64,000 bases of DNA. Origin: Candidatus Woesearchaeota archaeon (GTDB lineage Archaea; Nanobdellota; Nanobdellia; Pacearchaeales; GW2011-AR1). The notes under the pieces were generated by a model, which worked only from the letters and a program-made list of their open reading frames with translations, was not told the origin of the DNA and made no database searches. Below, one piece after another: positions 17,501 to 59,391 of the stretch. The stretch covers positions 77,450 through 141,449 of the forward strand of contig CAYOYN010000001.1 of assembly GCA_964408235.1 (NCBI GenBank), written 5' to 3'. The translations under genes were made by a program, and so were the position numbers. Numbering within the stretch: position 1 is the first letter of the stretch; each line of letters starts with the position of its first letter.

Positions 17501-18046
17501 TTATTTATTTTTTATATTCCACAATTGCTTAGTATATCCTCTTTCTTCACAATCTTTCTCACTAAACCCTAAAGCTTCTCTAACTTCTGCAACTTTCTTC
17601 CTAGCAAGATTAATATCTTTTTGAGGGCACAAAAACTCTAGTTCTAAAAACCAACCCAATCTTTTAACATAATTCAACTCAATATTCACTCCATTTTTAG
17701 TCTTATAGAGTTCAGTGGTTTTTTCTTTATGCAACCATTTTCTAAAACCAAAATCTTTTATCAAATCGAAAAAACCTTTAACATCAGATATTTGAAATTG
17801 AACTTCTTTTTTTGCATGAATTCCATTAACTAAACTAATTCTTTTTTTGAAGTTCACCTCCCTGACCTTTCCCATGTCTCTTACACGTAAACTCTTTTCA
17901 GGGTATTGAAAATATTCTAAGGTGTAATAATCATCTTTTTTTTCTTGTTTTTTAACAAATTTTGCAATCCTTTTTATTCTAGACCTCACAGAATTCAAAT
18001 CTTTTTGTTTGAAAGGTATCTTAGTCTCAACTTCAATCCAACTCAT
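17501..18046 (-). CDS. CYTH-domain protein (triphosphate tunnel metalloenzyme / CyaB-like)
   Basis: N-terminal ExExK signature (WIEVETKI). ~180 aa size. Basic tunnel residues. Confidence 0.65.
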   Translation of the reverse strand: MSWIEVETKIPFKQKDLNSVRSRIKRIAKFVKKQEKKDDYYTLEYFQYPEKSLRVRDMGKVREVNFKKRISLVNGIHAKKEVQFQISDVKGFFDLIKDFGFRKWLHKEKTTELYKTKNGVNIELNYVKRLGWFLELEFLCPQKDINLARKKVAEVREALGFSEKDCEERGYTKQLWNIKNK

Positions 18047-39439: not shown

Positions 39440-39511
39440 TGGCCCCACGCAGACTCGAACTGCGAATTACTCGGTGTAAACGAGTCGTTTGAACCCTTAG
39501 ACTATGGGGCC
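39440..39511 (-). tRNA. tRNA-Val (anticodon UAC)
   Basis: Reverse complement folds as a cloverleaf. Acceptor GGCCCCA/TGGGGCC. Anticodon arm ACTCG-TTTACAC-CGAGT (U33, anticodon TAC, A37). T-arm CGCAG-TTCGAGT-CTGCG. Discriminator A. No CCA encoded. D-stem has one mismatch. Confidence 0.65.
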
Positions 39512-39540
39512 TTTCGATCCAATAAAAGATTAAAATAAAC

Positions 39541-39552
39541 CTTTATAAAACC
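39541..39552 (+). promoter_or_regulatory. Palindromic TATA box (TTTATAAA) between divergent tRNA genes, ~26 nt upstream of tRNA-Gly
   Basis: cctttataaaacc centred ~26 nt before position 39573. A second A/T box (gattaaaataaac, 39527-39539) lies ~22 nt from the tRNA-Val 5' end on the other strand. Confidence 0.4.
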
Positions 39553-39572
39553 TTTCTGTCCAGTACATTAAA

Positions 39573-39644
39573 GCGCGGGTAGTATAGTGGTTAGTATACG
39601 ACGTTGCCAACGTTGTGGCCCGGGTTCAATTCCCGGCCCGCGCA
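39573..39644 (+). tRNA. tRNA-Gly (anticodon GCC)
   Basis: Acceptor GCGCGGG/CCCGCGC. D-arm GTAT-loop-(G)TAT. Anticodon arm CGACG-TTGCCAA-CGTTG (U33, GCC, A37). T-arm CCGGG-TTCAATT-CCCGG. Discriminator A. 72 nt, no CCA. Confidence 0.8.
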
Positions 39645-46761: not shown

Positions 46762-49497
46762 TTATTGGATCCTTATACGTTCTACCTGCTTGATAATAGT
46801 ATCAAGCTGTTCAGGAGTGAATTTCTCAAGAGGTCTTTCATCAGCTAAAGGATAGGAAACAAGGTCCTTCTTATCAAGGTGTTTGTTTATAGCAAAGAAA
46901 GAAGCTAGAATTCTTAAAAACTGAATTTGGTCAGCATTGTACTCTTTATTCTTCACAATAATAAGCCCATCAAATTGTCTTCTGATTTCCTCTTCTGGGT
47001 TAGGCAAGTCATGGAGTTCTAAAATATTTCTTAGGAACATAACAAAGTCTTGATTTTTTTGAATGTTTTCCAGAGACCATTGAGAGTTAAGTTTAGAAAG
47101 ATCTTGCGATATTTGTAAGAGTTCTTTCCAGGTAACTCCTTCTTTTGCCATCTTAGAAACAAGAGGATTCTGCTTAAACTTTTCAAAGGCAGGATTTTCT
47201 TTGATCTCCATTTTTGACCGCTCAATATTTAATATAAAGTCTGGAGCATCTACCTTGAGAATACGATTTCTCTCTTTTTCATAGAAGATCATTAATGGGG
47301 CTATCTCACGTATCAAGAAATCAATATCTTCAAAACTTATTTCTTCCCAGAAACTATCTTGCAAGACTTTTATGATCTGTTCTGATTTTCTCTTTACAGT
47401 TTCTAAGTTTGTTGCCCAGACACTTTCAACTCTTTTTTTAACAAAATCTTTTTCTTTATCTATGGCTTCAAGGTTACTTTCTTTAACGTATTTGAAGAGC
47501 TCTGTACAATGTAAAATAAACGTCTGAACTCTGCCATCTCCAAACTCAGAAAACTTTAACAGAGGAGCAACTTCATTCTTTAGTTCTTGTATATGTTCTT
47601 CTAAGTTATATTTCTTAGAAACTACTTTCTTAATCATCTCAGCTTTCGGTTTAACAATAAAAGACTTCTGGTCTATCTTTGATAATTCTCCGACTATTCG
47701 AGTTTCAATAATTTTTTTTTCTTCAGGACTTAATTTTTTCTTAAGAAGCTCCAACTCTTTTTCAAATATTTTTATCCTAACATCTTCTGTTAATTTCTTG
47801 TTATCGGAAGTTTCTAGTTTATGTTCTTTAACATTAGAATAATCTCCGAACTTAAAATCGAATATTCTGAAGTCTTTCTTATCATGAACATCATCGAAAA
47901 CAGGTAACCATTTAATTCCTTGAGGATTACTTATCGCAGATTGGTTTCTTGTTCCTCTACCAACCATTTGCCAAAATCTGATGTAAGAAAAAACAGGTGT
48001 AACAAATACAAGATTGCAAACTTCGGGAATATCAACACCAGTATCAAGAACTCCAACCGAAAGAGCTATTCTGGGGCTGGATTCTTTTTGGAATCTTTCA
48101 ACAGCATCCATATATCGATCATAACGAGAAACTATTACTTCTACGTCTTTTGCCTCAACATTGGGATATAATCGTTTGAAAGTGCCTCTTAAAGCTTCAG
48201 CATGCTTCACATTAATGCAGAAGAAAATAGTTTTACACGGCTTACCATCATCAGACTTATAACATCGATTCATAAACTCAGTGACAATTAAAGAGTTAGT
48301 TTTCTCATCAGTAAAATGCTTAACGAATTTTGTTCCAGGAATCTCAAAGTGTTCTGGATCTTCATCTTGCTTAATCAAATTTGTCTTAAGTTCTTTATCT
48401 AAGTCCATTCCTCTAATTCCTAATCCAAGAACTTTTGTTTCGATAACCTGGGCATCATAAGGGACAAGAACAGCATCTTTAACTGCTTCGTCATAACTAT
48501 ATTCAACAGTAGGTTTTCCTCTTTCACATTCAAATAAATCATAAGTGTTTTTTGCTTCGCTCTTTGAAGGTGTTGCAGTTAGTCCTATATTAAGAGAATC
48601 GAAATATTTCATCACTAGATTTTGCCTATCATAATAAGATCTATGTGCTTCATCAAATACTATTAAATCAAAAAATCCTGGTCCAAATTTTTGAAAATAA
48701 AATCCTCCTTCAGGACTTTTAGCCATTAGAGTTTGAACTGTTGAAACATATATTCTTTTATCTTTAGAAAACTCTTGTTCATTTAACAAACAAGCAGGCT
48801 CACTATGAAGAAATTTCTGGAATCCCTTATAGAAAGCATTTCTACCTAAAGAGATTCTATCCACAACAAACAATACATTTTGAACACGTTTAGCTCTAAT
48901 AAGAGATTCGATAATCGCAACAGCAACTCTTGTTTTTCCAGTTCCGGTTGCCATATTAATTAGAGCTTTTCTGTGCCCTAAACTGAAGTGTTCTAAAGTT
49001 CTTCTAGTAACTTCTATTCCTTTAGATCTATCAACAATGTTAGTATTAACTTCTAGTTTCAAGAGATCTTTTTTATTTTTGTATAAATCATACTTTCTCT
49101 TGAGATCTTTTTGGGAAAATGGTCCGGCAACTTCTCTTAATCCATAATCCTTTTCTTTAATATACCATTTCTTACCATTAGTAAGAAATATTGGAATCGG
49201 ATAACCTGTTTGGGCTTCCACGTCTTTTTGATAAGTTGTTGCTTGAATAACTCCCTTCTCTGCGTCTAACGAAAATCTTTTAGCTTCTATAACTGCTAAA
49301 GGAGTGTTATCTTCCCAAACAAGTAAGTAGTCCATGAACCTTCCTGAAGCATCTTTAAAATAATATTCGAATTTTCCAACTTTGAACTTAGAAGAAACAG
49401 AATTAACTTCTTTCTTAACATATTTATCAAGCCATCCTTCTTCTTTTAGGAGTGGATCAATGTGCCTTTCTCGCGTTTCTTTCTCGGATAGGTCCAT
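46762..49497 (-). CDS. hsdR: Type I restriction enzyme, R subunit (helicase-nuclease)
   Basis: N-terminal PD-(D/E)xK (LLVWED...VIEAKRF). Walker A (ATGTGKTRVAVA). DEAH-box (VFDEAHRS). SF2 helicase motifs (TATP, QMVGRGTR). Confidence 0.9.
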   Translation of the reverse strand: MDLSEKETRERHIDPLLKEEGWLDKYVKKEVNSVSSKFKVGKFEYYFKDASGRFMDYLLVWEDNTPLAVIEAKRFSLDAEKGVIQATTYQKDVEAQTGYPIPIFLTNGKKWYIKEKDYGLREVAGPFSQKDLKRKYDLYKNKKDLLKLEVNTNIVDRSKGIEVTRRTLEHFSLGHRKALINMATGTGKTRVAVAIIESLIRAKRVQNVLFVVDRISLGRNAFYKGFQKFLHSEPACLLNEQEFSKDKRIYVSTVQTLMAKSPEGGFYFQKFGPGFFDLIVFDEAHRSYYDRQNLVMKYFDSLNIGLTATPSKSEAKNTYDLFECERGKPTVEYSYDEAVKDAVLVPYDAQVIETKVLGLGIRGMDLDKELKTNLIKQDEDPEHFEIPGTKFVKHFTDEKTNSLIVTEFMNRCYKSDDGKPCKTIFFCINVKHAEALRGTFKRLYPNVEAKDVEVIVSRYDRYMDAVERFQKESSPRIALSVGVLDTGVDIPEVCNLVFVTPVFSYIRFWQMVGRGTRNQSAISNPQGIKWLPVFDDVHDKKDFRIFDFKFGDYSNVKEHKLETSDNKKLTEDVRIKIFEKELELLKKKLSPEEKKIIETRIVGELSKIDQKSFIVKPKAEMIKKVVSKKYNLEEHIQELKNEVAPLLKFSEFGDGRVQTFILHCTELFKYVKESNLEAIDKEKDFVKKRVESVWATNLETVKRKSEQIIKVLQDSFWEEISFEDIDFLIREIAPLMIFYEKERNRILKVDAPDFILNIERSKMEIKENPAFEKFKQNPLVSKMAKEGVTWKELLQISQDLSKLNSQWSLENIQKNQDFVMFLRNILELHDLPNPEEEIRRQFDGLIIVKNKEYNADQIQFLRILASFFAINKHLDKKDLVSYPLADERPLEKFTPEQLDTIIKQVERIRIQ

Positions 49498-49543
49498 TTT
49501 ATAATGACTATTTTGTTCTATAAAAAACTATCCCACCTAGATA

Positions 49544-49861
49544 TTATTGGCTTTCTTTTACCTTACCCAATAGTAGAAAGATAGGAACAACCCCATTTTT
49601 TTCTAACTCATCAATTATCTTTCTCGATTCCTTAAATGAACGATTATAGAACATAGTATAACCAAAATTGCTCCTTTTTTCTCTAAGTTGAGGAAATAAA
49701 TCAATAATCTCTTTTTGTAATTGAATTACATTCCAAGAACCCAAGCTTTCCTTATAAGAAAGTCTTCCATTAATTTGGATAGTTTCCTTTGGTTCGAGAT
49801 ATGAGAGCATCTCGGATAAAAGCTCTTCTTTACTTTTCTCTTTTTGTAGTGTGTTCCTCAT
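49544..49861 (-). CDS. Hypothetical small protein, last gene of radical-SAM operon
   Basis: 105-aa ORF, 23 nt after the phosphatase gene on the same strand. Confidence 0.45.
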   Translation of the reverse strand: MRNTLQKEKSKEELLSEMLSYLEPKETIQINGRLSYKESLGSWNVIQLQKEIIDLFPQLREKRSNFGYTMFYNRSFKESRKIIDELEKNGVVPIFLLLGKVKESQ

Positions 49862-49884
49862 TAATTAATCCAATCACTACACCT

Positions 49885-50457
49885 CTAATTTTTTCTATTT
49901 TGAATAAGTGGAATCTGTTTTGATTCTAGATTCTTTAAATCCAACTTGATAATTTGACAATTTTTTATGCTTACTTTATCATCTGCTTCATAAGCATTCA
50001 TATTCATTGTTGCACCTATAATCATTTTACTTAGGCAACCATGAGTGATTAATAGTATTCTACCTTTTTCTTGAATTAATTTGTTAAGAATAACTTTAGC
50101 TCTTTGCATTAATTGATCTAAATCTTCTCCGTGTTTAGGTCTTTTATTCTGTGCTATAAGCTTCTTGACTTCTATTTTTTTCATACCTATCCAATCTCCA
50201 CTATTTACTTCACGAAGCATGGAATCATAATTGATATTTATCTCAGATTCATTAGAAAATGTTTCAGCAAGTTCTTTACATCGTGCAGAATCGCTAGAGT
50301 AGACCTTAGAAATTTCTAAAGATAATAAATTTTTAACTGCCTCAGGTATCTGAGACTTACCATATTCAGATAAATCTCCACCCATTGGATCTTCAATAAT
50401 CTTTTCTTTATTATTGATTGTTTCTGGATGCCTTATGATAAATATCTCTGGCAACAT
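49885..50457 (-). CDS. Histidine phosphatase (phosphoglycerate-mutase/CobC-like) family protein
   Basis: N-terminal RH motif (IFIIRHPET). Second His in LLITHGCLS. ~190 aa. Confidence 0.6.
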   Translation of the reverse strand: MLPEIFIIRHPETINNKEKIIEDPMGGDLSEYGKSQIPEAVKNLLSLEISKVYSSDSARCKELAETFSNESEININYDSMLREVNSGDWIGMKKIEVKKLIAQNKRPKHGEDLDQLMQRAKVILNKLIQEKGRILLITHGCLSKMIIGATMNMNAYEADDKVSIKNCQIIKLDLKNLESKQIPLIQNRKN

Positions 50458-50969
50458 TATTTGTTAGCCTCATCTAATTTTTTGAAATGATCTTTACCAA
50501 TAGGCTCTAGAATTCCTTTAAACAAACTAGTAACTTTTTCAACCTCTTCTTTAGTTTTACCTTCAATCTCTACAAAATCAACTTCTGCAGGCTCCAATAT
50601 CTTCATTATTCCTAATTCTGAACCTTGCACATTCCAATATTCTCTAATTGTTCTGTTTTTTAGAATTCTTTTAAATCCAAGGCTTTTTAGGACAAGTTCC
50701 ATCTTTTCAGAATCTCCAATTGGAACATTAATTTCAACCCTTTCCCAAACATTGCTATCTGTTTCTCTCTTTCCCTTGAATGTCAGTTCTGAAACTCCTT
50801 TTTTTGTTCTTATCCTTAATAGATTTTCAGCAGTTTTCATATTTTCTCCATCTTTTCCATAATAACAATCAATAATTTCATAGGTTTCTGTGTGTTTTCC
50901 AACATTCTTTATCTTTTTTCTTAGCGCATTTTCATCGCCGTACTTTAGTTTAATCTCTATTTCTTTCAT
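50457..50969 (-). CDS. CYTH-domain triphosphate tunnel metalloenzyme (CyaB-like)
   Basis: N-terminal ExExK (MKEIEIKLKY). 170 aa. Stop overlaps the next gene start. Confidence 0.65.
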   Translation of the reverse strand: MKEIEIKLKYGDENALRKKIKNVGKHTETYEIIDCYYGKDGENMKTAENLLRIRTKKGVSELTFKGKRETDSNVWERVEINVPIGDSEKMELVLKSLGFKRILKNRTIREYWNVQGSELGIMKILEPAEVDFVEIEGKTKEEVEKVTSLFKGILEPIGKDHFKKLDEANK

Positions 50970-51595
50970 GGTTGTGTTAGATCTCCACCATTTTTAACTT
51001 TTTTCGATGATATTTCCCTTAAGGCTGATTGAAGGGTATCTTCTGCACTTCCGCCAGTATAAACGCTTACAATGCCTTTTTTTGCCCTTTGTAAAGCAGA
51101 ATACTGATCAAATAACCTACCTAATTCAGCAGTATTATCTCTTGTGTTAAGCCCAACGCACATATGAGAATAGTCTAGGCCTTCGTCTCTTTGAGAACCA
51201 ATTCTAGCTAGAGAAGTTACTGGATCTACAAGAAAGATTAAAGGAAGATCGATTTTTGGTTCTAAACTAAGCAATCTTTGGGTTGCATCTCTATAAACTT
51301 GATCCCCTATTTTCCCGTCTCGATGATCTGCTTCTAGCATAACTTGTCTATCATAAGGTCCTCTGTCCATCAATAAGTAATGGGGATTTCTTCCTTGAGC
51401 TTCTGGAATTTTTTGTTCTAGATATAATAGCATTTTTTGATGAAAGTCTTCAAGATCTCTACAACCTTTGAAATCTATTGGAGCTCTTCCAATTACTTCA
51501 CATCTTTCCCCATTGGCTTCGAAATGTGAAGCAAGGCTTCTCAAAGTAGAAGTTTTACCTGTTCTTGAAATACCAAATAATTCAATTGTAAGCAT
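50966..51595 (-). CDS. P-loop nucleoside/nucleotide kinase-like protein
   Basis: Walker A (FGISRTGKTSTL). DR motif (LLMDRGPYDR) as in dNMP/thymidylate kinases. Low-Lys, Arg/Gly-rich composition unlike neighbours. Confidence 0.55.
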   Translation of the reverse strand: MLTIELFGISRTGKTSTLRSLASHFEANGERCEVIGRAPIDFKGCRDLEDFHQKMLLYLEQKIPEAQGRNPHYLLMDRGPYDRQVMLEADHRDGKIGDQVYRDATQRLLSLEPKIDLPLIFLVDPVTSLARIGSQRDEGLDYSHMCVGLNTRDNTAELGRLFDQYSALQRAKKGIVSVYTGGSAEDTLQSALREISSKKVKNGGDLTQP

Positions 51596-52271
51596 AATTA
51601 ATCTTAACCTCTTTGTAGAAATTATTGGTAAGAAACTCGTACAGTAATGGAGACCTTTTCTCTATGTCTTCTTTAAATAAATTTAAGTCTTCCAATTTAT
51701 TGAGATCACCTTTTAATTTTAACAGATAACTTTTGCTTTTACTATTCTTCACTAAATCTTTAAGAGAATTTTCAGTACTCCATCTAATCCTATCAAAAAT
51801 ATTGTCTGGATTCTTATTCATTCCGATAAGATATACTCCGCCATTGTATTCTGGACCAAAAACATAGTTATTATTTTCCAAAATATTAAATGCATTAATT
51901 AGGCTAGATTCGGCGATTGATGGAACATCACTTGGAATTAAAATCACTTTTTCATAGCTTTTCTTAAAATGAGAGAAGAGAAATGAAAATCTTTGACTCT
52001 GGTCGCTTTGTAATAAAGATTCATTTAAAACATAAACATTAAGGCCAAGTTTCTCTCTAAAAAATTGAGACTCTGCCTCGCTATTAACTACGGCAATAAA
52101 ATCATAACTTTTTGAATTGCTTACTTTGTTAATAGTATCTTTAAGTGTGCAAAGACTTACAATATACGCAAATAATTCTGTGCTTTCTTTTGCTATTCTT
52201 GTTTTTGATTTTCCGATTTCAGGGAACTTTGTATATAAAATTACTAAGTTTTTATTCATCTTTGCTCCCAA
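51582..52271 (-). CDS. MobA/CofC-like (DUF2064-type) nucleotidyltransferase
   Basis: N-terminal LVILYTKFPEIGKSKTRIA resembles the K-x-P-x-x-G-x-x-K-T-R-L signature of the CofC/DUF2064 GT-A-fold NTases. Confidence 0.5.
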   Translation of the reverse strand: MGAKMNKNLVILYTKFPEIGKSKTRIAKESTELFAYIVSLCTLKDTINKVSNSKSYDFIAVVNSEAESQFFREKLGLNVYVLNESLLQSDQSQRFSFLFSHFKKSYEKVILIPSDVPSIAESSLINAFNILENNNYVFGPEYNGGVYLIGMNKNPDNIFDRIRWSTENSLKDLVKNSKSKSYLLKLKGDLNKLEDLNLFKEDIEKRSPLLYEFLTNNFYKEVKINYAYN

Positions 52272-53239
52272 TAGGTTTTACCTAATCCGGGTTGTGTGCG
52301 TAAGAATGCTCTTGATTCCATTATTGAACCGACAAGTGCTCCTTCATCTCTACTATCAATTGCTTCTTTAAGAGAAATTTCATGACTGCTCATTTTGCAG
52401 GGTTTTATGCTAAGTTTAGGAGTTACATAGATTTCGTTAGAATCATGACAACTTCTACATACTTCAGGTCTTCCGCAACCAACATCAATAACAACTCCTT
52501 TGGTTCCTTTGTAACCAAACCATTGAATTGGTAAGTAAGAATCCTGCCCTCTGAAAACTCCTCCTTGTTCAGGAAGATGAACTGCTCCTAAATCTCTGAC
52601 TCTTTGTCTAATAACTTCCGCATCCTGCACTAGACCGACCTGTCCAGCATGTATTGCTTCAAAATTTAGAAATTTAAATTTGAAACCATATTGAGCGCAT
52701 AAATCTAGAGTACCTCTCAAAGATTCAGAGTCATCATTCATACCTTTTACTGTAACATGCTTTACCTCTACTTTTTGTCCCAATCCTTTTTCCCCTAGAG
52801 ATTTTAATCCAGCCATTACTTTATCATAATGTGCAGGTCTACCCCTAGTTATTTGGCTGTATCTAGCAGAATCAGTTGTATGTAGTGAAACTCCAATTTT
52901 AGTAAATCTTTCAAGAGCATCTGCTAATCCATCTCTTCCAAGAAGTATCCCATTGGTATGATAGAATCTTTGAGGAATTCCTGATTCATTAGCAATTTCA
53001 ACCATTTCTCGCGCAGCAGGATGAGCAGTTGGATCTCCGCCCGAAAGAGAAATATGATTTAATCCGTGATTTCTTAAAGTAGTTGCTAAATATCTAAAAT
53101 CTTCTGGTTGCATTGAAACTTGGTTACGTTCTGCTCCTAAACCTTCATTTGAACAGAAAACACAAGACAAATTACAATTATCTGTAATAGAAACGCGTAA
53201 AGGGAATCTTCCCAATACATTCTCTATTGTTTGAGTCAT
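52256..53239 (-). CDS. Radical SAM enzyme, MoaA-like (GTP 3',8-cyclase family) with C-terminal auxiliary Cys cluster
   Basis: CX3CX2C (DNCNLSCVFC) at residues 22-29. GG(D/E)P motif (SLSGGDPTA). C-terminal CX5CX2CX16C (CGRPEVCRSCHDS...KPC). 327 aa like MoaA. Confidence 0.7.
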   Translation of the reverse strand: MTQTIENVLGRFPLRVSITDNCNLSCVFCSNEGLGAERNQVSMQPEDFRYLATTLRNHGLNHISLSGGDPTAHPAAREMVEIANESGIPQRFYHTNGILLGRDGLADALERFTKIGVSLHTTDSARYSQITRGRPAHYDKVMAGLKSLGEKGLGQKVEVKHVTVKGMNDDSESLRGTLDLCAQYGFKFKFLNFEAIHAGQVGLVQDAEVIRQRVRDLGAVHLPEQGGVFRGQDSYLPIQWFGYKGTKGVVIDVGCGRPEVCRSCHDSNEIYVTPKLSIKPCKMSSHEISLKEAIDSRDEGALVGSIMESRAFLRTQPGLGKTYWEQR

Positions 53240-53270
53240 AACTCATATATCTGAGGTTTTATTATATACT

Positions 53271-53310
53271 TATTGTGTGTATAAACACACATTGTATAAA
53301 TATGTGTACA
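53271..53310. promoter_or_regulatory. Overlapping dyad symmetries around a TATA box in the divergent promoter region
   Basis: TGTGTGT-ataa-ACACACA (53274-53291). ACACAT-tgtataaat-ATGTGT (53287-53307) spanning TATAAAT ~50 nt upstream of the regulator start. Confidence 0.45.
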
Positions 53311-53350
53311 TAACCATAAATTTAAATAAAGAACTTATATTTCTCGAACT

Positions 53351-54280
53351 ATGAAGAGAAAAGTTGTAAAGCACGGAGAAGGTACTCTTACTGTCTCGCT
53401 TCCATCTAACTGGGTAAAAAATAATAATCTCAAACAAGGACAATTAGTTAATGTAGAACCTTCACGTGGAAAGCTTGTTATATCAATACAAGACAAATCT
53501 TTTGAGCCAGTAACAATTCCTTTAGAAAACGGAGGTGAATGGTATATTGGAAGAATTATTCGCCATCTATACACTTCTGGATTTGATGAAATCAATATAA
53601 AATATACTTCACCTAAACAATTACCCCAAATTAGAGAAGATCTTAGATTATTAACTGGCCTTGAATTAGTAAAGAGCGATAATAATATATGTAGGCTTAA
53701 GTGTATGGTACATACAGATGATTCAGAATATGACCAAATTGTAAGAAAGATAATGTGGATTTTACTTTCAAAGTTAGATTATTTGTTAGAAGAAGGTGAA
53801 AAAGGCAATTTTGAGATGAGTTATGAGATAAAAGAACTTCACACTACTCTATGCAGATTATGCAATTTATCAAAGCGTTTAATAAATAAAAGAGAAATAT
53901 TCGACTCTGTAAACTCAAAATATGCTTATGACTTTTTTAACGCGATTATTGAGATTTCTCTTCTTATCAACTATTCCTATGATCATCTTAATACTCAAAA
54001 GAAACCAAAATTAAGCGAATTCGAATTAAGACTCCTTAAAGAAGTAAGAGACCATTATCAAGAACTTTACAACGCGGTAGTTAATGATAAAAAAGACAAT
54101 GTACAGAAGTTCTTTGAATCAAGAAAAGGAAACTTTGAGAGTAATCTTGAACTTATTAAAAAAGAAGATCCGATAATAATCCATTATTTCCTTATGATGC
54201 TTAGGACATTAACTCCAATAGGCAACCATATAGCTATGTTAAACGTAGAAAAAGAAAGAAGGCTAGAGGCAGATAAATGA
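53351..54280 (+). CDS. SpoVT/AbrB-domain plus PhoU-like helical domain transcription regulator
   Basis: N-terminal swapped-hairpin pattern (KHGEGTLTVSLPSNW...GQLVNVEP). Long helical C-terminal region resembling archaeal AbrB-PhoU (COG0704) proteins. Confidence 0.5.
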   Translation: MKRKVVKHGEGTLTVSLPSNWVKNNNLKQGQLVNVEPSRGKLVISIQDKSFEPVTIPLENGGEWYIGRIIRHLYTSGFDEINIKYTSPKQLPQIREDLRLLTGLELVKSDNNICRLKCMVHTDDSEYDQIVRKIMWILLSKLDYLLEEGEKGNFEMSYEIKELHTTLCRLCNLSKRLINKREIFDSVNSKYAYDFFNAIIEISLLINYSYDHLNTQKKPKLSEFELRLLKEVRDHYQELYNAVVNDKKDNVQKFFESRKGNFESNLELIKKEDPIIIHYFLMMLRTLTPIGNHIAMLNVEKERRLEADK

Positions 54281-54807
54281 AACTCCTTAAAGAGTTTAAA
54301 GATCCTGATTTTAAAGAAAATTCTAATATTAAGCTTCGTGAGGCTTCAAGAGCTGTTCTTTTTGATGAAAATAATTTAGTTCCAATATTGTTTGTTGCAA
54401 GCGGGAATTTTCATAAGCTTCCAGGCGGAGGCATAGATAAAGGGGAAACTAAAGAAGATGCTTTACTAAGAGAAGCTCTTGAGGAAGTTGGAGCTAAAAT
54501 AGAAATAAAATCCGAAGTTGGTAAAATTGTAGAATATCGTTCTGATAAAAATTTCAACTGGGGATCTGATATGAAACAGATATCTTATTGCTATCTTGGA
54601 AAGATTTTGTCTAAAGGAAAGCCTCAATTTACCGAGAAAGAAATGATTGAAGAGTTTGAGTTAGTTTGGATGACTTTGGATAAATCTATTGAAACTTTTG
54701 AAAATGATAAACCCCTTAATGTTGAAGGTAAATTTATTAGAGATAGGGATTTGACTTTCTTGAAAGAAGCTAAGAAGATTTTAGATGCTCGCTTGCCCTT
54801 TCAATAA
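54277..54807 (+). CDS. Nudix hydrolase
   Basis: Nudix box GGGIDKGETKEDALLREALEEVGA (Gx5Ex7REUxEExGU). 4-nt overlap with the regulator gene. Confidence 0.8.
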   Translation: MKLLKEFKDPDFKENSNIKLREASRAVLFDENNLVPILFVASGNFHKLPGGGIDKGETKEDALLREALEEVGAKIEIKSEVGKIVEYRSDKNFNWGSDMKQISYCYLGKILSKGKPQFTEKEMIEEFELVWMTLDKSIETFENDKPLNVEGKFIRDRDLTFLKEAKKILDARLPFQ

Positions 54808-54988
54808 TTTCTCCAAGTTTTATTACTCCATCAGCAATAAAATCTCTTCCTTCAGGAGTGGACATTTTTTCTAGCATGTTCTTTCTGAATTCTTCTTTTT
54901 GTCTTTGATCCATATACTAAATAGAAAGATATCAATAGAACTAAATTTATGTGGTAGGATGTATATTTTTACCAATATGACTGAGGGC

Positions 54989-55030
54989 CAAAGAGAAAGA
55001 AGAGAAAGAGAGAGTGAGAGAAGAGAGAAT
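54989..55030. repeat. ~42-nt polypurine (GA-rich) tract
   Basis: aagagaaagaagagaaagagagagtgagagaagagagaa in the convergent intergenic region. Confidence 0.6.
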
Positions 55031-55130
55031 TCCTTAAGTGACAATTAGCAGTTATTTTATTTTTAATAGACGATATAATTGCATTTTATAGCTAAAAACG
55101 AGATTTTTTCAGTGCCAGCCTGTTGACACT

Positions 55131-57434
55131 TCAATTTTTGGTGACAATCCTACTAATTATGCTTGCTAAATGTCTTTTGTCATGACATTTGCCTAATTTT
55201 GAATAACTTGTTCTTAAGTTTCTATTAGTTACAACAAAAAACCACCTATCAGGATAATTTTTATTCAAATTCTCAATTTTATTTAACAAATCTTTTTGAT
55301 TATGTTTAAGCAATTTTCCTGTTTCAACTTCAATAGCATATTCTTTCCCATCAACTTTGAAAACAATATCTGGCTTAACTGTCTCAAACATCTGTACTTT
55401 ATTTGTAAACTTCTTTATGTAGTTAAAAATATCATGGGTCATGAATATATGTTGAGGACTTTCATTATCTCTTTTTTCTATAAGATATCTTTCCTTTCTT
55501 TTTGATAAGATTCCTTGAAATGAATATGGCTTGTACCCTAAGTTTTTGAGGTAGTCTATATCTTCATCAGAGAGATCCTTTAATTTAACACAACCAATAT
55601 CCTCATCAACATTTATCTGAGTCTTTTGTCTTTTTTTCTTTTCTTTAGTTTGTCGATCCATATGCTTCTGTACTTCATCTAAACGTTCTTCCTCAGTTTG
55701 AATATGTGAATTAGCAAGCAATTCATCAGGTTTCGTGGTTATAATATTATGTTCTTCTGGAGATGAAACTATCTTTATTTCTGAATGTTCGTCATCCATA
55801 ATCAAGATTCCTTCCCCGATTCCTGCAGTAAGTAAGGAATTAACTTCTGACTCGCTTAAAAAGAAGGTCTTTTGTATATTCCTTATTACTGCTGGTTTTT
55901 GTCTCATAAGCAATGTGTAAGAGCTGTTAGCCAATACAGATTTCCCAGCTTCAGATTCAAGCATGCCTTCAACTTCTTGATTAATAAGAAATAATGCAAG
56001 GTTAAACTTTCTGCAGGTTTTTACTATCTCAAAAATGTAAGATGCATCGCTAGATTGTCTCAAAAGCGACCAAGCCTCATCAATAACAAGTAACTTTCTG
56101 TTAAGATCTCTTTTCATTTTCATATAAATATAATCAAGCACCAAAAACATCATTAAAGGTTTGATTTGTTTTGGTAGATTAGCTATATTAAAACAAACAA
56201 ATTGATTATCGAAGTTAATCTTAGTTTTTTGATTAAGGAATGAAAATACTCCGTTTACATACCAATCTAAACGGCTGGTTAAACTTCTCAAAGTTTGTTT
56301 TTCAGACATGATTGTCTTCTTTTCCATATCTTTAAGGACTTTAAGCAAATCCTCTAATAATGGAGGTTTTCTACTCCAACTCTTTACTTTATTGGCATAA
56401 ATTTTCTTTTTCTGGTAAGTTTTTGTTAGGGCTCTCTCCATAATTGCTTTTTGAGGTTCTGAAAGATCTCCAAGCATGATTGGTAAAATATCCCACAATG
56501 CGAGTCTTTTTTCAGGATAATCATGTCCCATTAAATCTAATGGATTAATTATAGTTTCAGAAATTGTGCTTAAATCGATTAATTGCCCATTAAAACGCTC
56601 AACAAGGGCTTTGTATTCTCCTTGGGGATCAATAACCATTACTTTAGTGCCATTTAGTAAATACCTTGAAATTAATAGCTTTGCCATATAACTCTTACCT
56701 GAACCAGAACTAGCCAAACATAATCCATTTGGATTACTTAGATTAAAAATATCTTTTATTATGGGAATATTATTCTTATTTTGGCCAAACCAGATCCCTG
56801 TTTTATCTGCTTGAAGGAAAGAAGAAGTAAATGGGAAGAAAGCAGATAATGCTTCTGTAGGCACACTTCTAACTTGATTTAACTTGTTAATCGCTAAAGG
56901 CGAACAAGACTGAAAACCTTGAGCCATCCTAAATGTAGGTTGCCTTGGAATAATTAGAAGAGAGTTAAGTTCTGCCTGTATCCTTCTTGTCAATAAGTCT
57001 AATTCTTCCCTATTTTTAGCCCTACAGTTAAAGTATAAACTTACATTAAACAACTTATCCTTACCCTTCTGCAAGTTTGATAAAACTGCTTTAGTGTCTT
57101 TGTATTTTATTTGCAAGCTTGGGTTAAGAATATTCTTGCTTTTAGCAGAGAATAAATCTCCTCTTTGTTTTTGGAGTTCTCTATTAAGAAAAACCATCAT
57201 AGTTTCAATGTCATATGGCTCTATGTGCATTGAAAGATCAAAATTACCTGTTGTGCTAATAATCTTATCAAGAAAGCCTGTTTCTACACTTCTTGGATAG
57301 CCATGAGCGTAAATAGTCCTATTGAGAATATTAGTATGTTCATTAGAAATACTTAGATAATTAGAAGAGTTTTCTATTTTAATTGGAAAAAAGTCTAAAT
57401 TCTCATTCTTACTTTCCTTTTTCTTCCAAAACAT
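55131..57434 (-). CDS. VirB4/TrbE/CedB-like conjugation ATPase with C-terminal PD-(D/E)xK-like domain
   Basis: Walker A (LASSGSGKSYMA). VirB4-type Walker B DEAW (LLVIDEAWSLL). C-terminal ~120 aa with D-x-n-E-x-K pattern (DIVFKVDGKEYAIEVETGK). Confidence 0.75.
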   Translation of the reverse strand: MFWKKKESKNENLDFFPIKIENSSNYLSISNEHTNILNRTIYAHGYPRSVETGFLDKIISTTGNFDLSMHIEPYDIETMMVFLNRELQKQRGDLFSAKSKNILNPSLQIKYKDTKAVLSNLQKGKDKLFNVSLYFNCRAKNREELDLLTRRIQAELNSLLIIPRQPTFRMAQGFQSCSPLAINKLNQVRSVPTEALSAFFPFTSSFLQADKTGIWFGQNKNNIPIIKDIFNLSNPNGLCLASSGSGKSYMAKLLISRYLLNGTKVMVIDPQGEYKALVERFNGQLIDLSTISETIINPLDLMGHDYPEKRLALWDILPIMLGDLSEPQKAIMERALTKTYQKKKIYANKVKSWSRKPPLLEDLLKVLKDMEKKTIMSEKQTLRSLTSRLDWYVNGVFSFLNQKTKINFDNQFVCFNIANLPKQIKPLMMFLVLDYIYMKMKRDLNRKLLVIDEAWSLLRQSSDASYIFEIVKTCRKFNLALFLINQEVEGMLESEAGKSVLANSSYTLLMRQKPAVIRNIQKTFFLSESEVNSLLTAGIGEGILIMDDEHSEIKIVSSPEEHNIITTKPDELLANSHIQTEEERLDEVQKHMDRQTKEKKKRQKTQINVDEDIGCVKLKDLSDEDIDYLKNLGYKPYSFQGILSKRKERYLIEKRDNESPQHIFMTHDIFNYIKKFTNKVQMFETVKPDIVFKVDGKEYAIEVETGKLLKHNQKDLLNKIENLNKNYPDRWFFVVTNRNLRTSYSKLGKCHDKRHLASIISRIVTKN

Positions 57435-58194
57435 TCGTCACCTCCATTTTATCTCTAGAAATAAAGAATTTTCTTACCAAAGAGTCTAATTCCAAGTCAT
57501 TTAATCTAAAACTCTTTAGTCCAATATTTGCAAGTTTGCTTTGACAAATTTGTAGTTGAATATTTATATCAGATTTTTCTAAGATTACTAGATAAAATAC
57601 TCTATTCATTACATCATTCTCTTTAGCAAGAGATTCTAATTGTCTTTTATATCCCTCAAAAAGTTCTTTGAATTTTTTAGAATCGATTAACCTTTTCTTA
57701 AATTCTTCAAAATATTCAGTAAGATTAAGCTGTTCAGTACTCATTATTATCTGGACCTTGAAGTCAAGGCTATTAAGAAATTTCTGAAATGCTATAGCAA
57801 TTGCTTGTTTAGATTCTTCTGGCTTAATTGAGAAATTAATAGGGCTTATCTTTAGAATTGCTAATTTCTTGTTGTCTTTTGTAAATATTAGACTTTCTTT
57901 TATTTCCTTAATTGGGATAAATTTGCCTAACTTATTTGGTAATTGAATTAACTTCGATTTATACCAATAATACCAGTTTCTTACATGCTTATCTAATTCT
58001 AGAAAAATAAATCCTATTCCTAGGCCACTCAACATAGAAATAATTGGTATCTTTATAGCAAGATGTAGATCTGTCTTAAAAAATATAGTAAGAATAATTG
58101 GAGCAAACACAAAAAGATAAGCTAGTTGCTTAAAGTTTAGACCAAACATTATTTTTTCTTTGTATTCTAAAGATTGAGGTATCTCATAGCCCAT
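57409..58194 (-). CDS. VirB3-like membrane protein with cytoplasmic extension
   Basis: Two N-terminal TM helices. Gene immediately precedes and overlaps the VirB4-like gene by 26 nt, the canonical VirB3 position. Confidence 0.45.
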   Translation of the reverse strand: MGYEIPQSLEYKEKIMFGLNFKQLAYLFVFAPIILTIFFKTDLHLAIKIPIISMLSGLGIGFIFLELDKHVRNWYYWYKSKLIQLPNKLGKFIPIKEIKESLIFTKDNKKLAILKISPINFSIKPEESKQAIAIAFQKFLNSLDFKVQIIMSTEQLNLTEYFEEFKKRLIDSKKFKELFEGYKRQLESLAKENDVMNRVFYLVILEKSDINIQLQICQSKLANIGLKSFRLNDLELDSLVRKFFISRDKMEVTNVLEEKGK

Positions 58195-59003
58195 TATTTA
58201 TTCCACCTTCCTACTTTATTGTAAATGCTAAATGCAGCCCTTGTAATAGCAAAAAATAACAGAACAACCATTAATATATCGATGAGGAGGAATGCTGAGA
58301 TTAAGATAATAATCTGTAAATTACTGAAAACTCCGACATTCATTAATGCTGAAAATCCAATTAATAATATTGCATCAAAGAACGTTATAAAAATCGAAAT
58401 TCCTAATATATTTAGTATCAAAGAACCAAAACCCCTTAGTTTAGGTAAAAAGTAAAAGAAAATGCCTATGGGCAAAAGAACTATGCCTATTGCAACTATC
58501 GCATACCTTAAAGTTAATACAAGAGCAGTTAAAATTAATACTGCAACGTAAACTATTCCTAAACTTAATGCTAAACCAAGCCCTATTGTGCTACTTACTT
58601 GTATGCTAAAGAAATTTTCATCAACAATATTCAATGTTGCAGAAGTCATAGAAGATGCCAGATCTAAAACTAATTGGTAGAGAAAGAATGAAGATTGAAC
58701 TAAAACAATCATTATTATGATATTTCTTATCCATTCCTTTGCTGATTCTCTTTTTTCAGAATCATAACCTGAAATAAGAAAGCTTATTCCGACTCCAACT
58801 AAAAGCAACGCATAGAACATAGAAAGCATGTAGACAATAATTACCCATAAACTCAAGAAAATCTGAGTATGAACATCTGCAGATAATAAATTAAGAACTA
58901 TTTGCAAAAATGGCTGAATTGGAGCATTAACTACGTTAAATAGAAAATTAAAGAACATCTCTGGAAGACAAGCTCCAAGATTAACTAATCCACAATTAGG
59001 CAT
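58194..59003 (-). CDS. Polytopic membrane protein (VirB6/TrbL-like candidate) containing a pilin-like motif
   Basis: 6-7 TM helices. Internal DSEKRESAKEW segment paralogous to the pilin-like gene motif SDPGKRESSKN. Confidence 0.5.
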   Translation of the reverse strand: MPNCGLVNLGACLPEMFFNFLFNVVNAPIQPFLQIVLNLLSADVHTQIFLSLWVIIVYMLSMFYALLLVGVGISFLISGYDSEKRESAKEWIRNIIIMIVLVQSSFFLYQLVLDLASSMTSATLNIVDENFFSIQVSSTIGLGLALSLGIVYVAVLILTALVLTLRYAIVAIGIVLLPIGIFFYFLPKLRGFGSLILNILGISIFITFFDAILLIGFSALMNVGVFSNLQIIILISAFLLIDILMVVLLFFAITRAAFSIYNKVGRWNK

Positions 59004-59391
59004 ATTTTCTAAAAAATGAAGTCTTAGTTAGAAATGAGAATATAATATAATTAAACAAAAGAAGGATAACTATTTTAAAAAATAAAATGAATCTACTTGT
59101 TTCTATTTCATTAAGAGAAAAAGTAAAGTTTGCTTGTGCTTGAGGATAATTTGGACCTTGAGATCCTTGGAATCCGTATTCTTGATCCCATAGAATGCAA
59201 ACCGCCTCTCTTCTTTCTTGTCCAGATGTTTGGCCCCAAATATAATTGCAATCAGCCCTCTTATCCATATTAGTAAAATTAGAGCATTTCAAGTTTGAGG
59301 GACAAGCAGTAACTACTTGCAAAGGCAATAATAAAATCAAAATTCCTATTGCAAGTAAATATACTGCTTCTCTGGTTAATGGTTTATTCAT
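58996..59391 (-). CDS. Secreted Cys-rich protein with C-terminal TM anchor
   Basis: Signal peptide. 4 Cys in the mature domain. C-terminal hydrophobic helix. Confidence 0.45.
   Translation of the reverse strand: MNKPLTREAVYLLAIGILILLLPLQVVTACPSNLKCSNFTNMDKRADCNYIWGQTSGQERREAVCILWDQEYGFQGSQGPNYPQAQANFTFSLNEIETSRFILFFKIVILLLFNYIIFSFLTKTSFFRKYA

Follow-up and report, generated by a model that had tools for sequence, protein, structure and literature searches.

What would a cell with a minimal metabolism do with a regulated set of six to eight genes for nucleotide chemistry? DPANN archaea and bacteria of the candidate phyla radiation (CPR) have such a metabolism and depend on their hosts for nucleotides, so that this investment needs an explanation. 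The question is raised by a window of 64,000 nucleotides (the whole stretch of DNA that was analysed, from contig CAYOYN010000001.1 of a Candidatus Woesearchaeota archaeon), in which positions 49544-54807 hold a cassette of eight genes whose signature is a MoaA-like radical S-adenosylmethionine (SAM) enzyme, here called rSAM1. Positions are window coordinates unless a locus identifier (L0xx) is given. Our analysis indicates that the cassette is conserved, mobile and self-regulated, that every enzyme in it is intact and comes from a nucleotide- or phosphate-handling family, and that it is confined to DPANN archaea and CPR bacteria, both of them ultra-small episymbionts, thus crossing the divide between archaea and bacteria. 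We infer that it makes a radical-SAM-modified nucleotide derivative under its own regulation, and that its role would be conflict-related, the product being antiviral or otherwise a toxic analogue directed against a polymerase; to this reading of product and role we give a probability of about 0.45. Each part is known, and so is the general logic by which a radical SAM enzyme works on a nucleotide in company with a kinase; what is new is their combination, together with the enzyme family and the host range, and a literature search found no published description of the gene set, as the initial annotation of this DNA had supposed.

The genes and the control region between them are the following (lengths in amino acids, aa).

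52256-53239, minus strand: rSAM1, MoaA-like 'twitch' radical SAM enzyme, the signature gene (327 aa; Pfam Radical_SAM, 4.6e-22)
51582-52259, minus strand: DUF2064 protein, a CofC/MobA-like putative nucleotidyltransferase (225 aa from ATG 52259; Pfam DUF2064, 8.7e-16)
50966-51595, minus strand: P-loop nucleoside/nucleotide kinase-like protein (209 aa; Walker A and DRGxYDR)
50457-50969, minus strand: CYTH protein, a triphosphate-tunnel metalloenzyme (170 aa; Pfam CYTH, 2.9e-16)
49885-50457, minus strand: histidine phosphatase, branch 1, an accessory part (190 aa; Pfam His_Phos_1, 3.3e-28)
49544-49861, minus strand: conserved 105-aa protein, last gene of the transcription unit (no family match)
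53240-53350: bidirectional promoter region with two TATA-like boxes and a 7-4-7 palindrome (read from the sequence)
53351-54280, plus strand: transcription regulator with an AbrB/MazE domain and a helical C-terminal part (309 aa)
54277-54807, plus strand: Nudix hydrolase, translationally coupled to the regulator (176 aa; Pfam NUDIX, 1.9e-14)

The ORF list bears out the eight open reading frames (ORFs) at the positions first proposed for them, six on the minus strand and two divergent on the plus strand. The coupled operon and the divergent regulator-Nudix pair described in the initial annotation are real, overlaps included, and its enzyme identities (radical SAM, MobA/CofC-like nucleotidyltransferase, kinase, CYTH, histidine phosphatase and Nudix) all proved correct by Pfam, NCBIfam and PDB profiles together with motifs. 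With ATG 52259 as the start of DUF2064, which is where gene callers put it on the source contig, rSAM1 and DUF2064 overlap by 4 nt (ATGA); TTG 52271 is the alternative, mechanical start (ORF 51582-52271). DUF2064 and the kinase overlap by 14 nt (51582-51595), the kinase and CYTH by 4 nt (50966-50969), CYTH and the histidine phosphatase by 1 nt (50457), and the regulator and Nudix by 4 nt (54277-54280). A gap of 23 nt separates the histidine phosphatase from the 105-aa ORF.

Related loci were gathered by exact-protein look-ups, a scan of one genome per species and a metagenome scan, giving 51 loci, of which 35 remain once those with 95% identity in the radical SAM protein are merged. Gene order is repeated across these 35 non-redundant loci, and the gene set is therefore not due to chance. 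Components were mapped by ORF calling with a hidden Markov model per component, and the counts refer to the 21 complete non-redundant loci. Both rSAM1 and DUF2064 are present in all 21. CYTH is found in 19/21, the kinase in 18/21 (of the window type, or of a TMPK/CMPK-like type in CPR loci), a second radical SAM gene in 13/21, Nudix in at least 12/21, a family of about 160 aa (c5) in 11/21, the AbrB regulator in 10/21, a histidine phosphatase or a metallophosphoesterase in 8/21 (histidine phosphatase 5, Metallophos 4, both in 1) and the 105-aa protein in 5/21. Two architectures could be distinguished. The archaeal one, to which the window belongs, has the regulator divergent from rSAM1, DUF2064, kinase and CYTH in that order, with the phosphatase and the 105-aa protein as optional last members. 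In the other, found in CPR and in some DPANN, rSAM1 is immediately preceded by the second radical SAM gene, a paralogue that shares its motifs and Cys cluster, and the DUF2064 protein has a C-terminal Nudix fusion (at least 10 of the 21).

The c5 family turned out to be a full-length homologue of GreB and GreA (E=1e-18 and 3e-16, with Gfh1 at 4e-11). It retains the acidic residues at the tip of the coiled coil, where the motif 'TWHD(E/N)' is conserved. The homologue lies on either side of the cassette, and although Gre factors count as bacterial it is on archaeal contigs too (L012:9956-10444, L018:3101-3580, L019:13389-13868, L024:6935-7468 and L025:6774-7274), with further cases in L028, L030, L032, L035, L036, L038 and L039.

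Since rSAM1 defines the cassette, the first matter to settle is its family. The ordinary explanation would be synthesis of the molybdenum cofactor (Moco), with rSAM1 as MoaA and DUF2064 as a MobA-like guanylyltransferase. MoaA is in fact the top family and the top structural match of rSAM1, DUF2064 falls in the CofC/MobA-like transferase class, and one source labels an rSAM1 homologue 'cyclic pyranopterin phosphate synthase'. The likeness extends to the N-terminal CxxxCxxC, the C-terminal auxiliary CxxC...C, the equivalents of R17 and R192 and the overall fold. However, identity to MoaA is only 18-19%, and the scores against the NCBIfam MoaA equivalogs TIGR02666 and TIGR02668 are 105.2 and 99.1 bits, against cut-offs of 284.05 and 325.25. 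The Pfam search detected no Mob_synth_C domain (PF06463) in rSAM1; this domain is present only in those search hits that are 30% or less identical to it, which are true MoaA proteins. The protein ends in PGLGKTYWEQR, and the family consensus is PGLGxxYWxQ where MoaA has Gly-Gly. Judged by motif position, no Arg appears where MoaA binds guanine, and the conserved partners CYTH, kinase and Nudix have no role in Moco synthesis. Within about 42 kb of the window, represented by L001 and L043, no gene with a Pfam label is a MoaC, MoaB, MoaD or MoaE. The initial annotation had foreseen most of this: a MoaA-like fold that is not a canonical MoaA, the missing C-terminal Gly-Gly and the absence of MoaC, MoaD and MoaE nearby. 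It had also named firm placement among MoaA orthologues as the result that would count against it, and homology came out the other way. Moco synthesis was thus rejected on thresholds, motifs and gene context; it is largely refuted and the least credible of the explanations that we considered.

In a search of 5.8 billion proteins, about 24 are 40-96% identical to rSAM1, after which identity falls sharply to 30% or less. The rSAM1 profile, run against 1.84 billion cluster representatives, gave 33 with E<=1e-30. There are about 8 full-length clusters above 280 bits, then a gap to about 180 bits, and single-domain proteins of MoaA length from about 129 bits down. Two relatives of intermediate score (P0068 and P0069) lie on short contigs with no cassette partners alongside. 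Among 22 aligned homologues the radical SAM motif C22/C26/C29 (CNLSCVFC), the C-terminal cluster C255/C261/C264/C281 and the motifs SGGDP, HTNG and FKFKFLN are all invariant; compared with MoaA, the C-terminal cluster has a fourth invariant Cys and an x16 rather than x13 spacing. The AlphaFold2 model of rSAM1 has a predicted local distance difference test (pLDDT) score of 91.7, and Foldseek ranks MoaA first over the full length (template modelling score, TM, 0.72-0.74), with viperins next (about 0.6); TYW1 appears among both the sequence and the structure matches. A separate observation from these searches is a group of giant proteins of about 1,000-1,900 aa with three or four repeats of a MoaA/viperin-like radical SAM core (P0072, P0075, P0077, P0081 and P0082).

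The kinase next to rSAM1 raises another possibility, a divergent prokaryotic viperin (pVip) that would use its kinase to make a 3'-deoxy-3',4'-didehydro-nucleoside triphosphate as chain terminator. Many pVips, and viperin with CMPK2, have a nucleotide kinase beside them in this way; the radical SAM clade is the same, and so is the setting of a radical SAM enzyme for a nucleoside triphosphate (NTP) next to a nucleotide kinase. The patchy, horizontally transferred distribution and the defence-island neighbours of the archaeal cassette loci are also reminiscent of viperins, which are second-tier structural matches, and the PADLOC pVip models match rSAM1 at 54.6 and 50.6 bits, over the core only. 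Against this, the NCBIfam viperin model NF038283 gives 41.9 bits with a cut-off of 180, MoaA outscores viperin in every comparison of family scores and structure, and the MoaA-type C-terminal auxiliary Cys cluster is invariant, while to our knowledge viperins carry none. Moreover, pVips act as single enzymes without conserved DUF2064, CYTH or Nudix genes; the cassette, by comparison, is described by DUF2064 and CYTH, usually Nudix and often two paralogous radical SAM genes. Membership of the viperins was rejected on the score and on the auxiliary cluster, and a pVip system seems to us very improbable. A published analysis takes MoaA as distant outgroup to the viperins, and its negative control, which lacks antiviral activity, is likewise MoaA (10.1101/2023.09.13.557418).

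Because of the scores below cut-off, the drop in identity, the Cys clusters, the tail and the model comparisons, rSAM1 is, as judged from its sequence, a two-cluster 'twitch' radical SAM enzyme of a separate family, nearest to MoaA and belonging neither to MoaA nor to viperin. Its features point to a nucleotide substrate. The best structural matches are MoaA and then the nucleotide-acting viperin and BlsE, and R17 and R192, which bind the triphosphate in Staphylococcus aureus MoaA, correspond in the HMMER alignment to the conserved R15 and K189. BlsE, of blasticidin S synthesis, and the radical SAM steps of other nucleoside antibiotics offer a further parallel, a nucleoside scaffold tailored by several enzymes, although similarity is low, the accessory genes are not in common and the hosts are DPANN and CPR with minimal metabolism rather than actinomycetes.

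The partner enzymes bear on what would follow the radical step. The initial annotation had made its pathway depend on the kinase, nucleotidyltransferase and CYTH calls, and motifs and profiles agree with all three. In the kinase, Walker A (G.SR.GKT) and DRGxYDR are invariant in a profile of 11 homologues; Pfam gives only weak P-loop matches below cut-off, and in the PDB the profile finds thymidylate kinases (1.6e-6, mainly covering the P-loop) and the dAK/dCK structure 8j5g (7.5e-5 over residues 10-172). The CYTH protein scores 60.3 bits (Pfam cut-off 23.2), and has ExExK at residues 3-7 (MKEIEIK, residues 1-7). A class IV adenylate cyclase would be the alternative to a triphosphatase, and the cyaB model TIGR00318 is barely passed (59.2 vs 57.95 bits). 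Its nearest solved relative is SaTTM, Saci_0718 of Sulfolobus acidocaldarius (7ns8, a triphosphate tunnel metalloenzyme; 6e-11), reported to be a triphosphatase, which we take to be of the small-molecule type. Outside the cassette there is a second CYTH gene (17501-18046, minus strand), which matches the profile of the cassette CYTH at E=2.6e-13. It presumably encodes the triphosphate tunnel enzyme that belongs to the host itself, and the cassette CYTH would then be an extra paralogue.

The Nudix protein has an intact canonical box, GX5EX7REUXEEXGU, as read from the sequence. It resembles the Nudix domain of the DUF2064 fusions at the level of the box only, which rules out orthology with it. 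A close homologue of the window Nudix (5e-39) adjoins the CPR cassette L035. Sequence comparison thus suggests that Nudix is a partner recruited more than once, as a fusion and as a separate gene, and therefore that its functional link to the cassette is real, in agreement with the initial annotation, which had counted this divergent gene with the operon.

Some of these families also occur in RNA metabolism, and the cassette could be imagined as a system for RNA-end processing, repair or a capping-like modification. CYTH would then serve as RNA triphosphatase, ends would be healed by the kinase and the phosphatases, DUF2064 would act as nucleotidyltransferase and Nudix as decapping enzyme or pyrophosphohydrolase; a link to RNA polymerase during transcription would come from the Gre homologue, and the radical SAM enzyme would be a base modifier comparable to TYW1. 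RNA triphosphatases are among the members of the CYTH superfamily, TYW1 is among the matches of rSAM1, the best NCBIfam matches of Nudix are RNA pyrophosphohydrolases (all below cut-off), and an RNase_T exonuclease, an Exo_endo_phos protein and the Gre homologue occur in related loci. The enzymes themselves fit less well, as the kinase profile agrees with mononucleotide or nucleoside kinases and not with polynucleotide kinases, SaTTM is of the small-molecule type, the fold of DUF2064 is of the MobA/CofC type and not that of a ligase or capping enzyme, and the mapped loci have no conserved RNA ligase or methyltransferase. We consider an RNA-end system improbable, and a weaker rival than the one to which DUF2064 leads.

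The DUF2064 protein scores 58.3 bits in Pfam (cut-off 25.8), with a weak match to CofC (1.1e-4); against TIGR04282 it reaches 99.5 bits, below the cut-off of 134. Its nearest solved relative is 3cgx, an uncharacterised 'putative nucleotide-diphospho-sugar transferase' (9e-13). A DUF2064/TIGR04282-like transferase beside a radical SAM gene recalls the arsenosugar cluster of ArsS, TIGR04282 and TIGR04283. The cassette differs in the sub-threshold TIGR04282 score, in a radical SAM partner that is MoaA-like (39 bits against the ArsS model, cut-off 300), in its other accessory genes and in the second transferase, since component mapping placed a gene of the TIGR04283 type in no cassette locus.

The weak CofC match brings in the main rival, a pathway for a metabolite or cofactor without a defence role. 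Candidates for its product are a cofactor derived from a nucleotide, a head group resembling a pterin or deazaflavin that carries a nucleotide-activated tail, and a nucleoside natural product that is secreted to serve episymbiosis; the kinase would make a phospho-intermediate, the CofC/MobA-like DUF2064 would activate it with GTP or CTP, and the phosphatases would finish the molecule. A multi-enzyme operon with a dedicated regulator is what such a pathway would look like, and two paralogous radical SAM enzymes with a CofC-like protein and a kinase recall the assembly of F420/Fo and of Moco dinucleotides. The histidine phosphatase reaches no NCBIfam equivalog, and alpha-ribazole phosphatase comes closest, at a score below cut-off. 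By combining a CofC/MobA-like transferase with a kinase and a phosphatase in a single operon, the cassette resembles the nucleotide-activation steps of cofactor assembly by CofC (F420), MobA (bis-molybdopterin guanine dinucleotide, Mo-bisMGD) and CobY/CobC (cobalamin), although here no equivalog threshold is reached, the cassette lacks a transferase equivalent to CofD or CobS, and no cofactor-using enzymes lie in it or nearby.

The control region suggests how the cassette is regulated. The AbrB/MazE domain is found at the N-terminus of 8/8 regulator homologues (best 2e-9), the window protein itself scoring 19.9 bits with a cut-off of 24.7. The protein belongs to a large DPANN family of AbrB proteins of about 313 aa, some of which NCBI and JGI name 'phosphate uptake regulator PhoU'. 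The initial annotation had called it an AbrB-PhoU regulator, and the AbrB half of that name stands. The PhoU half is unproven, with a Pfam match in just 1/8 family members (E=0.08) and no PDB relative in a profile search. Within the 111-bp intergenic region, TATA-like boxes precede the operon (53262-53269) and the regulator (53320-53328). Across 8 divergent loci neither A/T box varies, and each precedes its start codon by about 23-31 nt, the spacing expected of archaeal TATA boxes with short or absent leaders. Between them lies a perfect 7-4-7 palindrome (TGTGTGT-ATAA-ACACACA, 53274-53291), conserved only in the three closest loci, and around it a repeat finder reports a wider arm pair that is 72% complementary. 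It is a plausible candidate operator for the AbrB regulator; the operator-like dyads that had been proposed come down to this single palindrome in close relatives. No riboswitch or other Rfam element was found in 49000-55200.

Who carries the cassette, and how it moves, bears on the choice between a conflict role and a cofactor pathway. All 35 non-redundant loci are on low-GC contigs, nearly all labelled as DPANN archaea or CPR bacteria, and in the genome scan the hosts were Nano-, Woese- and Pacearchaeota, Saccharibacteria, Buchananbacteria, Falkowbacteria and other Patescibacteria. Contigs of the assemblies 'Hain_H41/H43/H51/H52' came from groundwater. The host of the window is a DPANN archaeon, because the named homologues are from Nano-, Pace- and Woesearchaeota and the metagenomic source contig of 137 kb carries genes for archaeal/eukaryotic-type ribosomal proteins (L35Ae, and L16, the homologue of archaeal L10e). 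Six loci (L027, L028, L031, L037, L038 and L039) are labelled 'uncultured Gammaproteobacteria' or 'Methanosarcinales'. These labels are probably binning errors, since the contigs have 28-40% GC and cassettes of the same DPANN/CPR-type architectures, and L031 has the archaeal AbrB regulator. Confinement to two episymbiotic lineages would suit a function of lifestyle and so a metabolite. The distribution is extremely patchy, though, with the cassette in 26 of 185,579 species genomes by a pattern scan and the 33 representatives already mentioned, and the flanks are variable and the unit sharply bounded, all of which argues against a metabolite. A viral origin was rejected, the IMG/VR scan having yielded just an unrelated radical SAM gene; the viral contig concerned (L042, IMGVR_UViG_3300017917_000647, about 7.7-18.7 kb) has six separate radical SAM ORFs in 11 kb, with 23% identity and unrelated to the cassette family.

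The boundaries are seen most sharply among close relatives. One of 92% nucleotide identity shares exactly 49551-54280 and 54275-54766 with the window and nothing adjacent, and one of 75% DNA identity shares 49554-54779 and a VirB4-like gene, there 7 kb apart by other genes. Homology ends at the cassette edges and the flanks are unrelated, so that 49544-54807 delimits a discrete mobile unit of 5.2 kb. Two of the relatives carry additional DNA. In L015:7567-8963 (the same in L049; 96% rSAM protein and 92% DNA identity) the regulator and Nudix are separated by an insertion of 1.4 kb, with genes for a second paralogue of the histidine phosphatase and for a 267-aa protein without a Pfam match. The 7 kb between VirB4-like gene and cassette in L005:2105-8415 (72% protein and 75% DNA identity) code for a reverse transcriptase that is short (RVT_1, 185 aa), for an ATPase of the AAA_5 family (483 aa) and for three family-less proteins, a stretch that we regard as a candidate defence module.

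In the window, the cassette sits in a variable stretch that begins after a tRNA-Val/tRNA-Gly pair and conserved chromosomal genes and that holds type I restriction-modification, ParE-type toxin, DNA methylase, TrbC-pilin, TraC-like and VirB4-like genes. The initial annotation had placed the cassette in a mobile element beside a type I restriction-modification system and conjugation genes; the island is indeed variable, and its genes are of the type I restriction-modification, toxin-antitoxin and type-IV-secretion-like kinds. The divergent pair, tRNA-Val(TAC)/tRNA-Gly(GCC) at 39440-39644, borders the conserved genes (ribosomal proteins, pyruvate phosphate dikinase) and the variable stretch, and may be the attachment site of the island. 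In the type-IV-secretion-like set (55131-59391 and about 59.9-60.7 kb), a VirB4/TraG-like ATPase of 767 aa is accompanied by a TraC-like protein, a pilin of the TrbC/VirB2 type and an N6/N4 DNA methylase; by eye, the last 100 residues of the ATPase contain a PD-(D/E)xK nuclease-like motif. Among archaeal loci the gene following the cassette changes and is mostly of defence type: a type I system, a C5 methylase with HATPase_c_3, DUF4238, an SNF2 helicase with NOV_C, or HEPN/nucleotidyltransferase (MNT) and PIN genes. No flanking family recurs among the 149 flanking proteins of 19 loci (at most 3/149 per family). The archaeal loci thus appear to lie in hot spots of defence genes, which speaks against a cofactor pathway; this defence-island argument, made from adjacency at individual loci, holds for archaeal loci only.

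Membership of the last gene of the unit is less certain. The 105-aa protein had no family match in Pfam, NCBIfam and PADLOC scans, its AlphaFold2 model is poor (pLDDT 56), and the idea of a truncated Gre factor was dropped after hhalign showed no similarity. A 73%-identical homologue stands alone without a cassette (L045:8001-8306, and L046); its neighbours are a methylase of the Dam type and a MORC-like HATPase_c_3 ATPase, with a divergent double helix-turn-helix regulator. Restriction or defence-type genes are found beside the 105-aa gene in 6/7 cassette loci and in the stand-alone locus, and a Csa3-like gene in the seventh. Because the homologue stands alone beside the Dam methylase and the MORC-like ATPase, the gene may belong to the neighbouring defence hot spot and not to the pathway, in which its place is doubtful.

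Putting the enzymes in order, the pathway that we propose would begin with the kinase, resembling thymidylate kinases (TMPK) and deoxynucleoside kinases, which would phosphorylate a salvaged nucleoside or nucleotide towards the NTP. From this NTP rSAM1 would abstract a ribose hydrogen, and rearrangement would follow by cyclisation or dehydration, on a substrate that would not be GTP handled in the manner of MoaA. DUF2064 might join a nucleoside monophosphate to a phosphate of the intermediate, or activate it as a nucleoside diphosphate conjugate, a role that is a guess. CYTH (on a triphosphate), Nudix (on a diphosphate link) and the histidine phosphatase (on a monophosphate) could set the final phosphorylation state or prevent accumulation, and the AbrB-type repressor would bind the palindrome between the divergent TATA boxes. 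The initial annotation had likewise put the kinase first, the radical SAM enzyme second and phosphate removal by CYTH and phosphatase last, a sequence of steps that is plausible. In its logic the system would be analogous to viperin with its kinase, with different chemistry and more tailoring steps. A conflict role is favoured because of the patchy distribution across domains, the sharp boundaries, the defence hot spots of archaeal loci and the linked Gre factor.

Several points weigh against this reading. A regulated operon of six to eight enzymes is more like a biosynthetic pathway than like the known antiviral radical SAM systems, which have a single enzyme. The Gre homologue and the second radical SAM gene are both absent from the window, and the IMG/VR scan found no cassette member in viral contigs. 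In the HMMER alignment K69, R71 and K163 of S. aureus MoaA are replaced in rSAM1 by H, S and E and are not conserved, and the position of the guanine-binding Arg (R266/R268) is occupied by C-x-x-C-x-x-S-N-E, without Arg, a correspondence drawn from motif position only, as HMMER left the C-terminal domains unaligned. Around the CPR loci, finally, lie housekeeping genes, sigma-70 and aminoacyl-tRNA synthetases among them, as a metabolite pathway would lead one to expect. The initial annotation had regarded conservation in a housekeeping context outside mobile elements as an argument against defence; the archaeal loci have defence-type neighbours, the CPR loci housekeeping ones. Taken with these points, synthesis of a metabolite or cofactor is the alternative to be taken most seriously, although we hold it to be somewhat unlikely.

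The Gre factor permits the conflict role to be carried one step further. It travels with the cassette, which suggests RNA polymerase as target or partner. The tailored analogue might act on RNA polymerase, as chain terminator or as a ligand of the secondary channel, and serve the ultra-small episymbionts of DPANN and CPR as a molecule of immunity or warfare, with Gre as self-protection or as effector partner. One could speculate that Gre excises a 3'-terminal analogue from the polymerase of the producer. Archaeal RNA polymerase relies on TFS for transcript cleavage, and self-protection by Gre therefore fits archaeal hosts poorly. We regard the RNA-polymerase version as unlikely overall. Were it true, immunity would gain its first two-cluster (MoaA-type) radical SAM enzyme and its first multi-step 'antiviral nucleotide factory', and archaea and bacteria would for the first time be seen to have such a system in common.

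With 5.2 kb, the cassette is small enough for direct synthesis and testing. The reaction of rSAM1 is likely to be new nucleotide chemistry, because the enzyme represents a small new family between MoaA and viperin. Should the product be a cofactor or a signal, the cassette would reveal a hitherto unknown metabolic trait of these uncultured lineages. Should it be antiviral or toxic, the principle of viperin would reach a second enzyme lineage and extend to multi-step tailoring, DUF2064 would obtain its first function, and one would understand why archaeal genomes contain a bacterial-type Gre factor.

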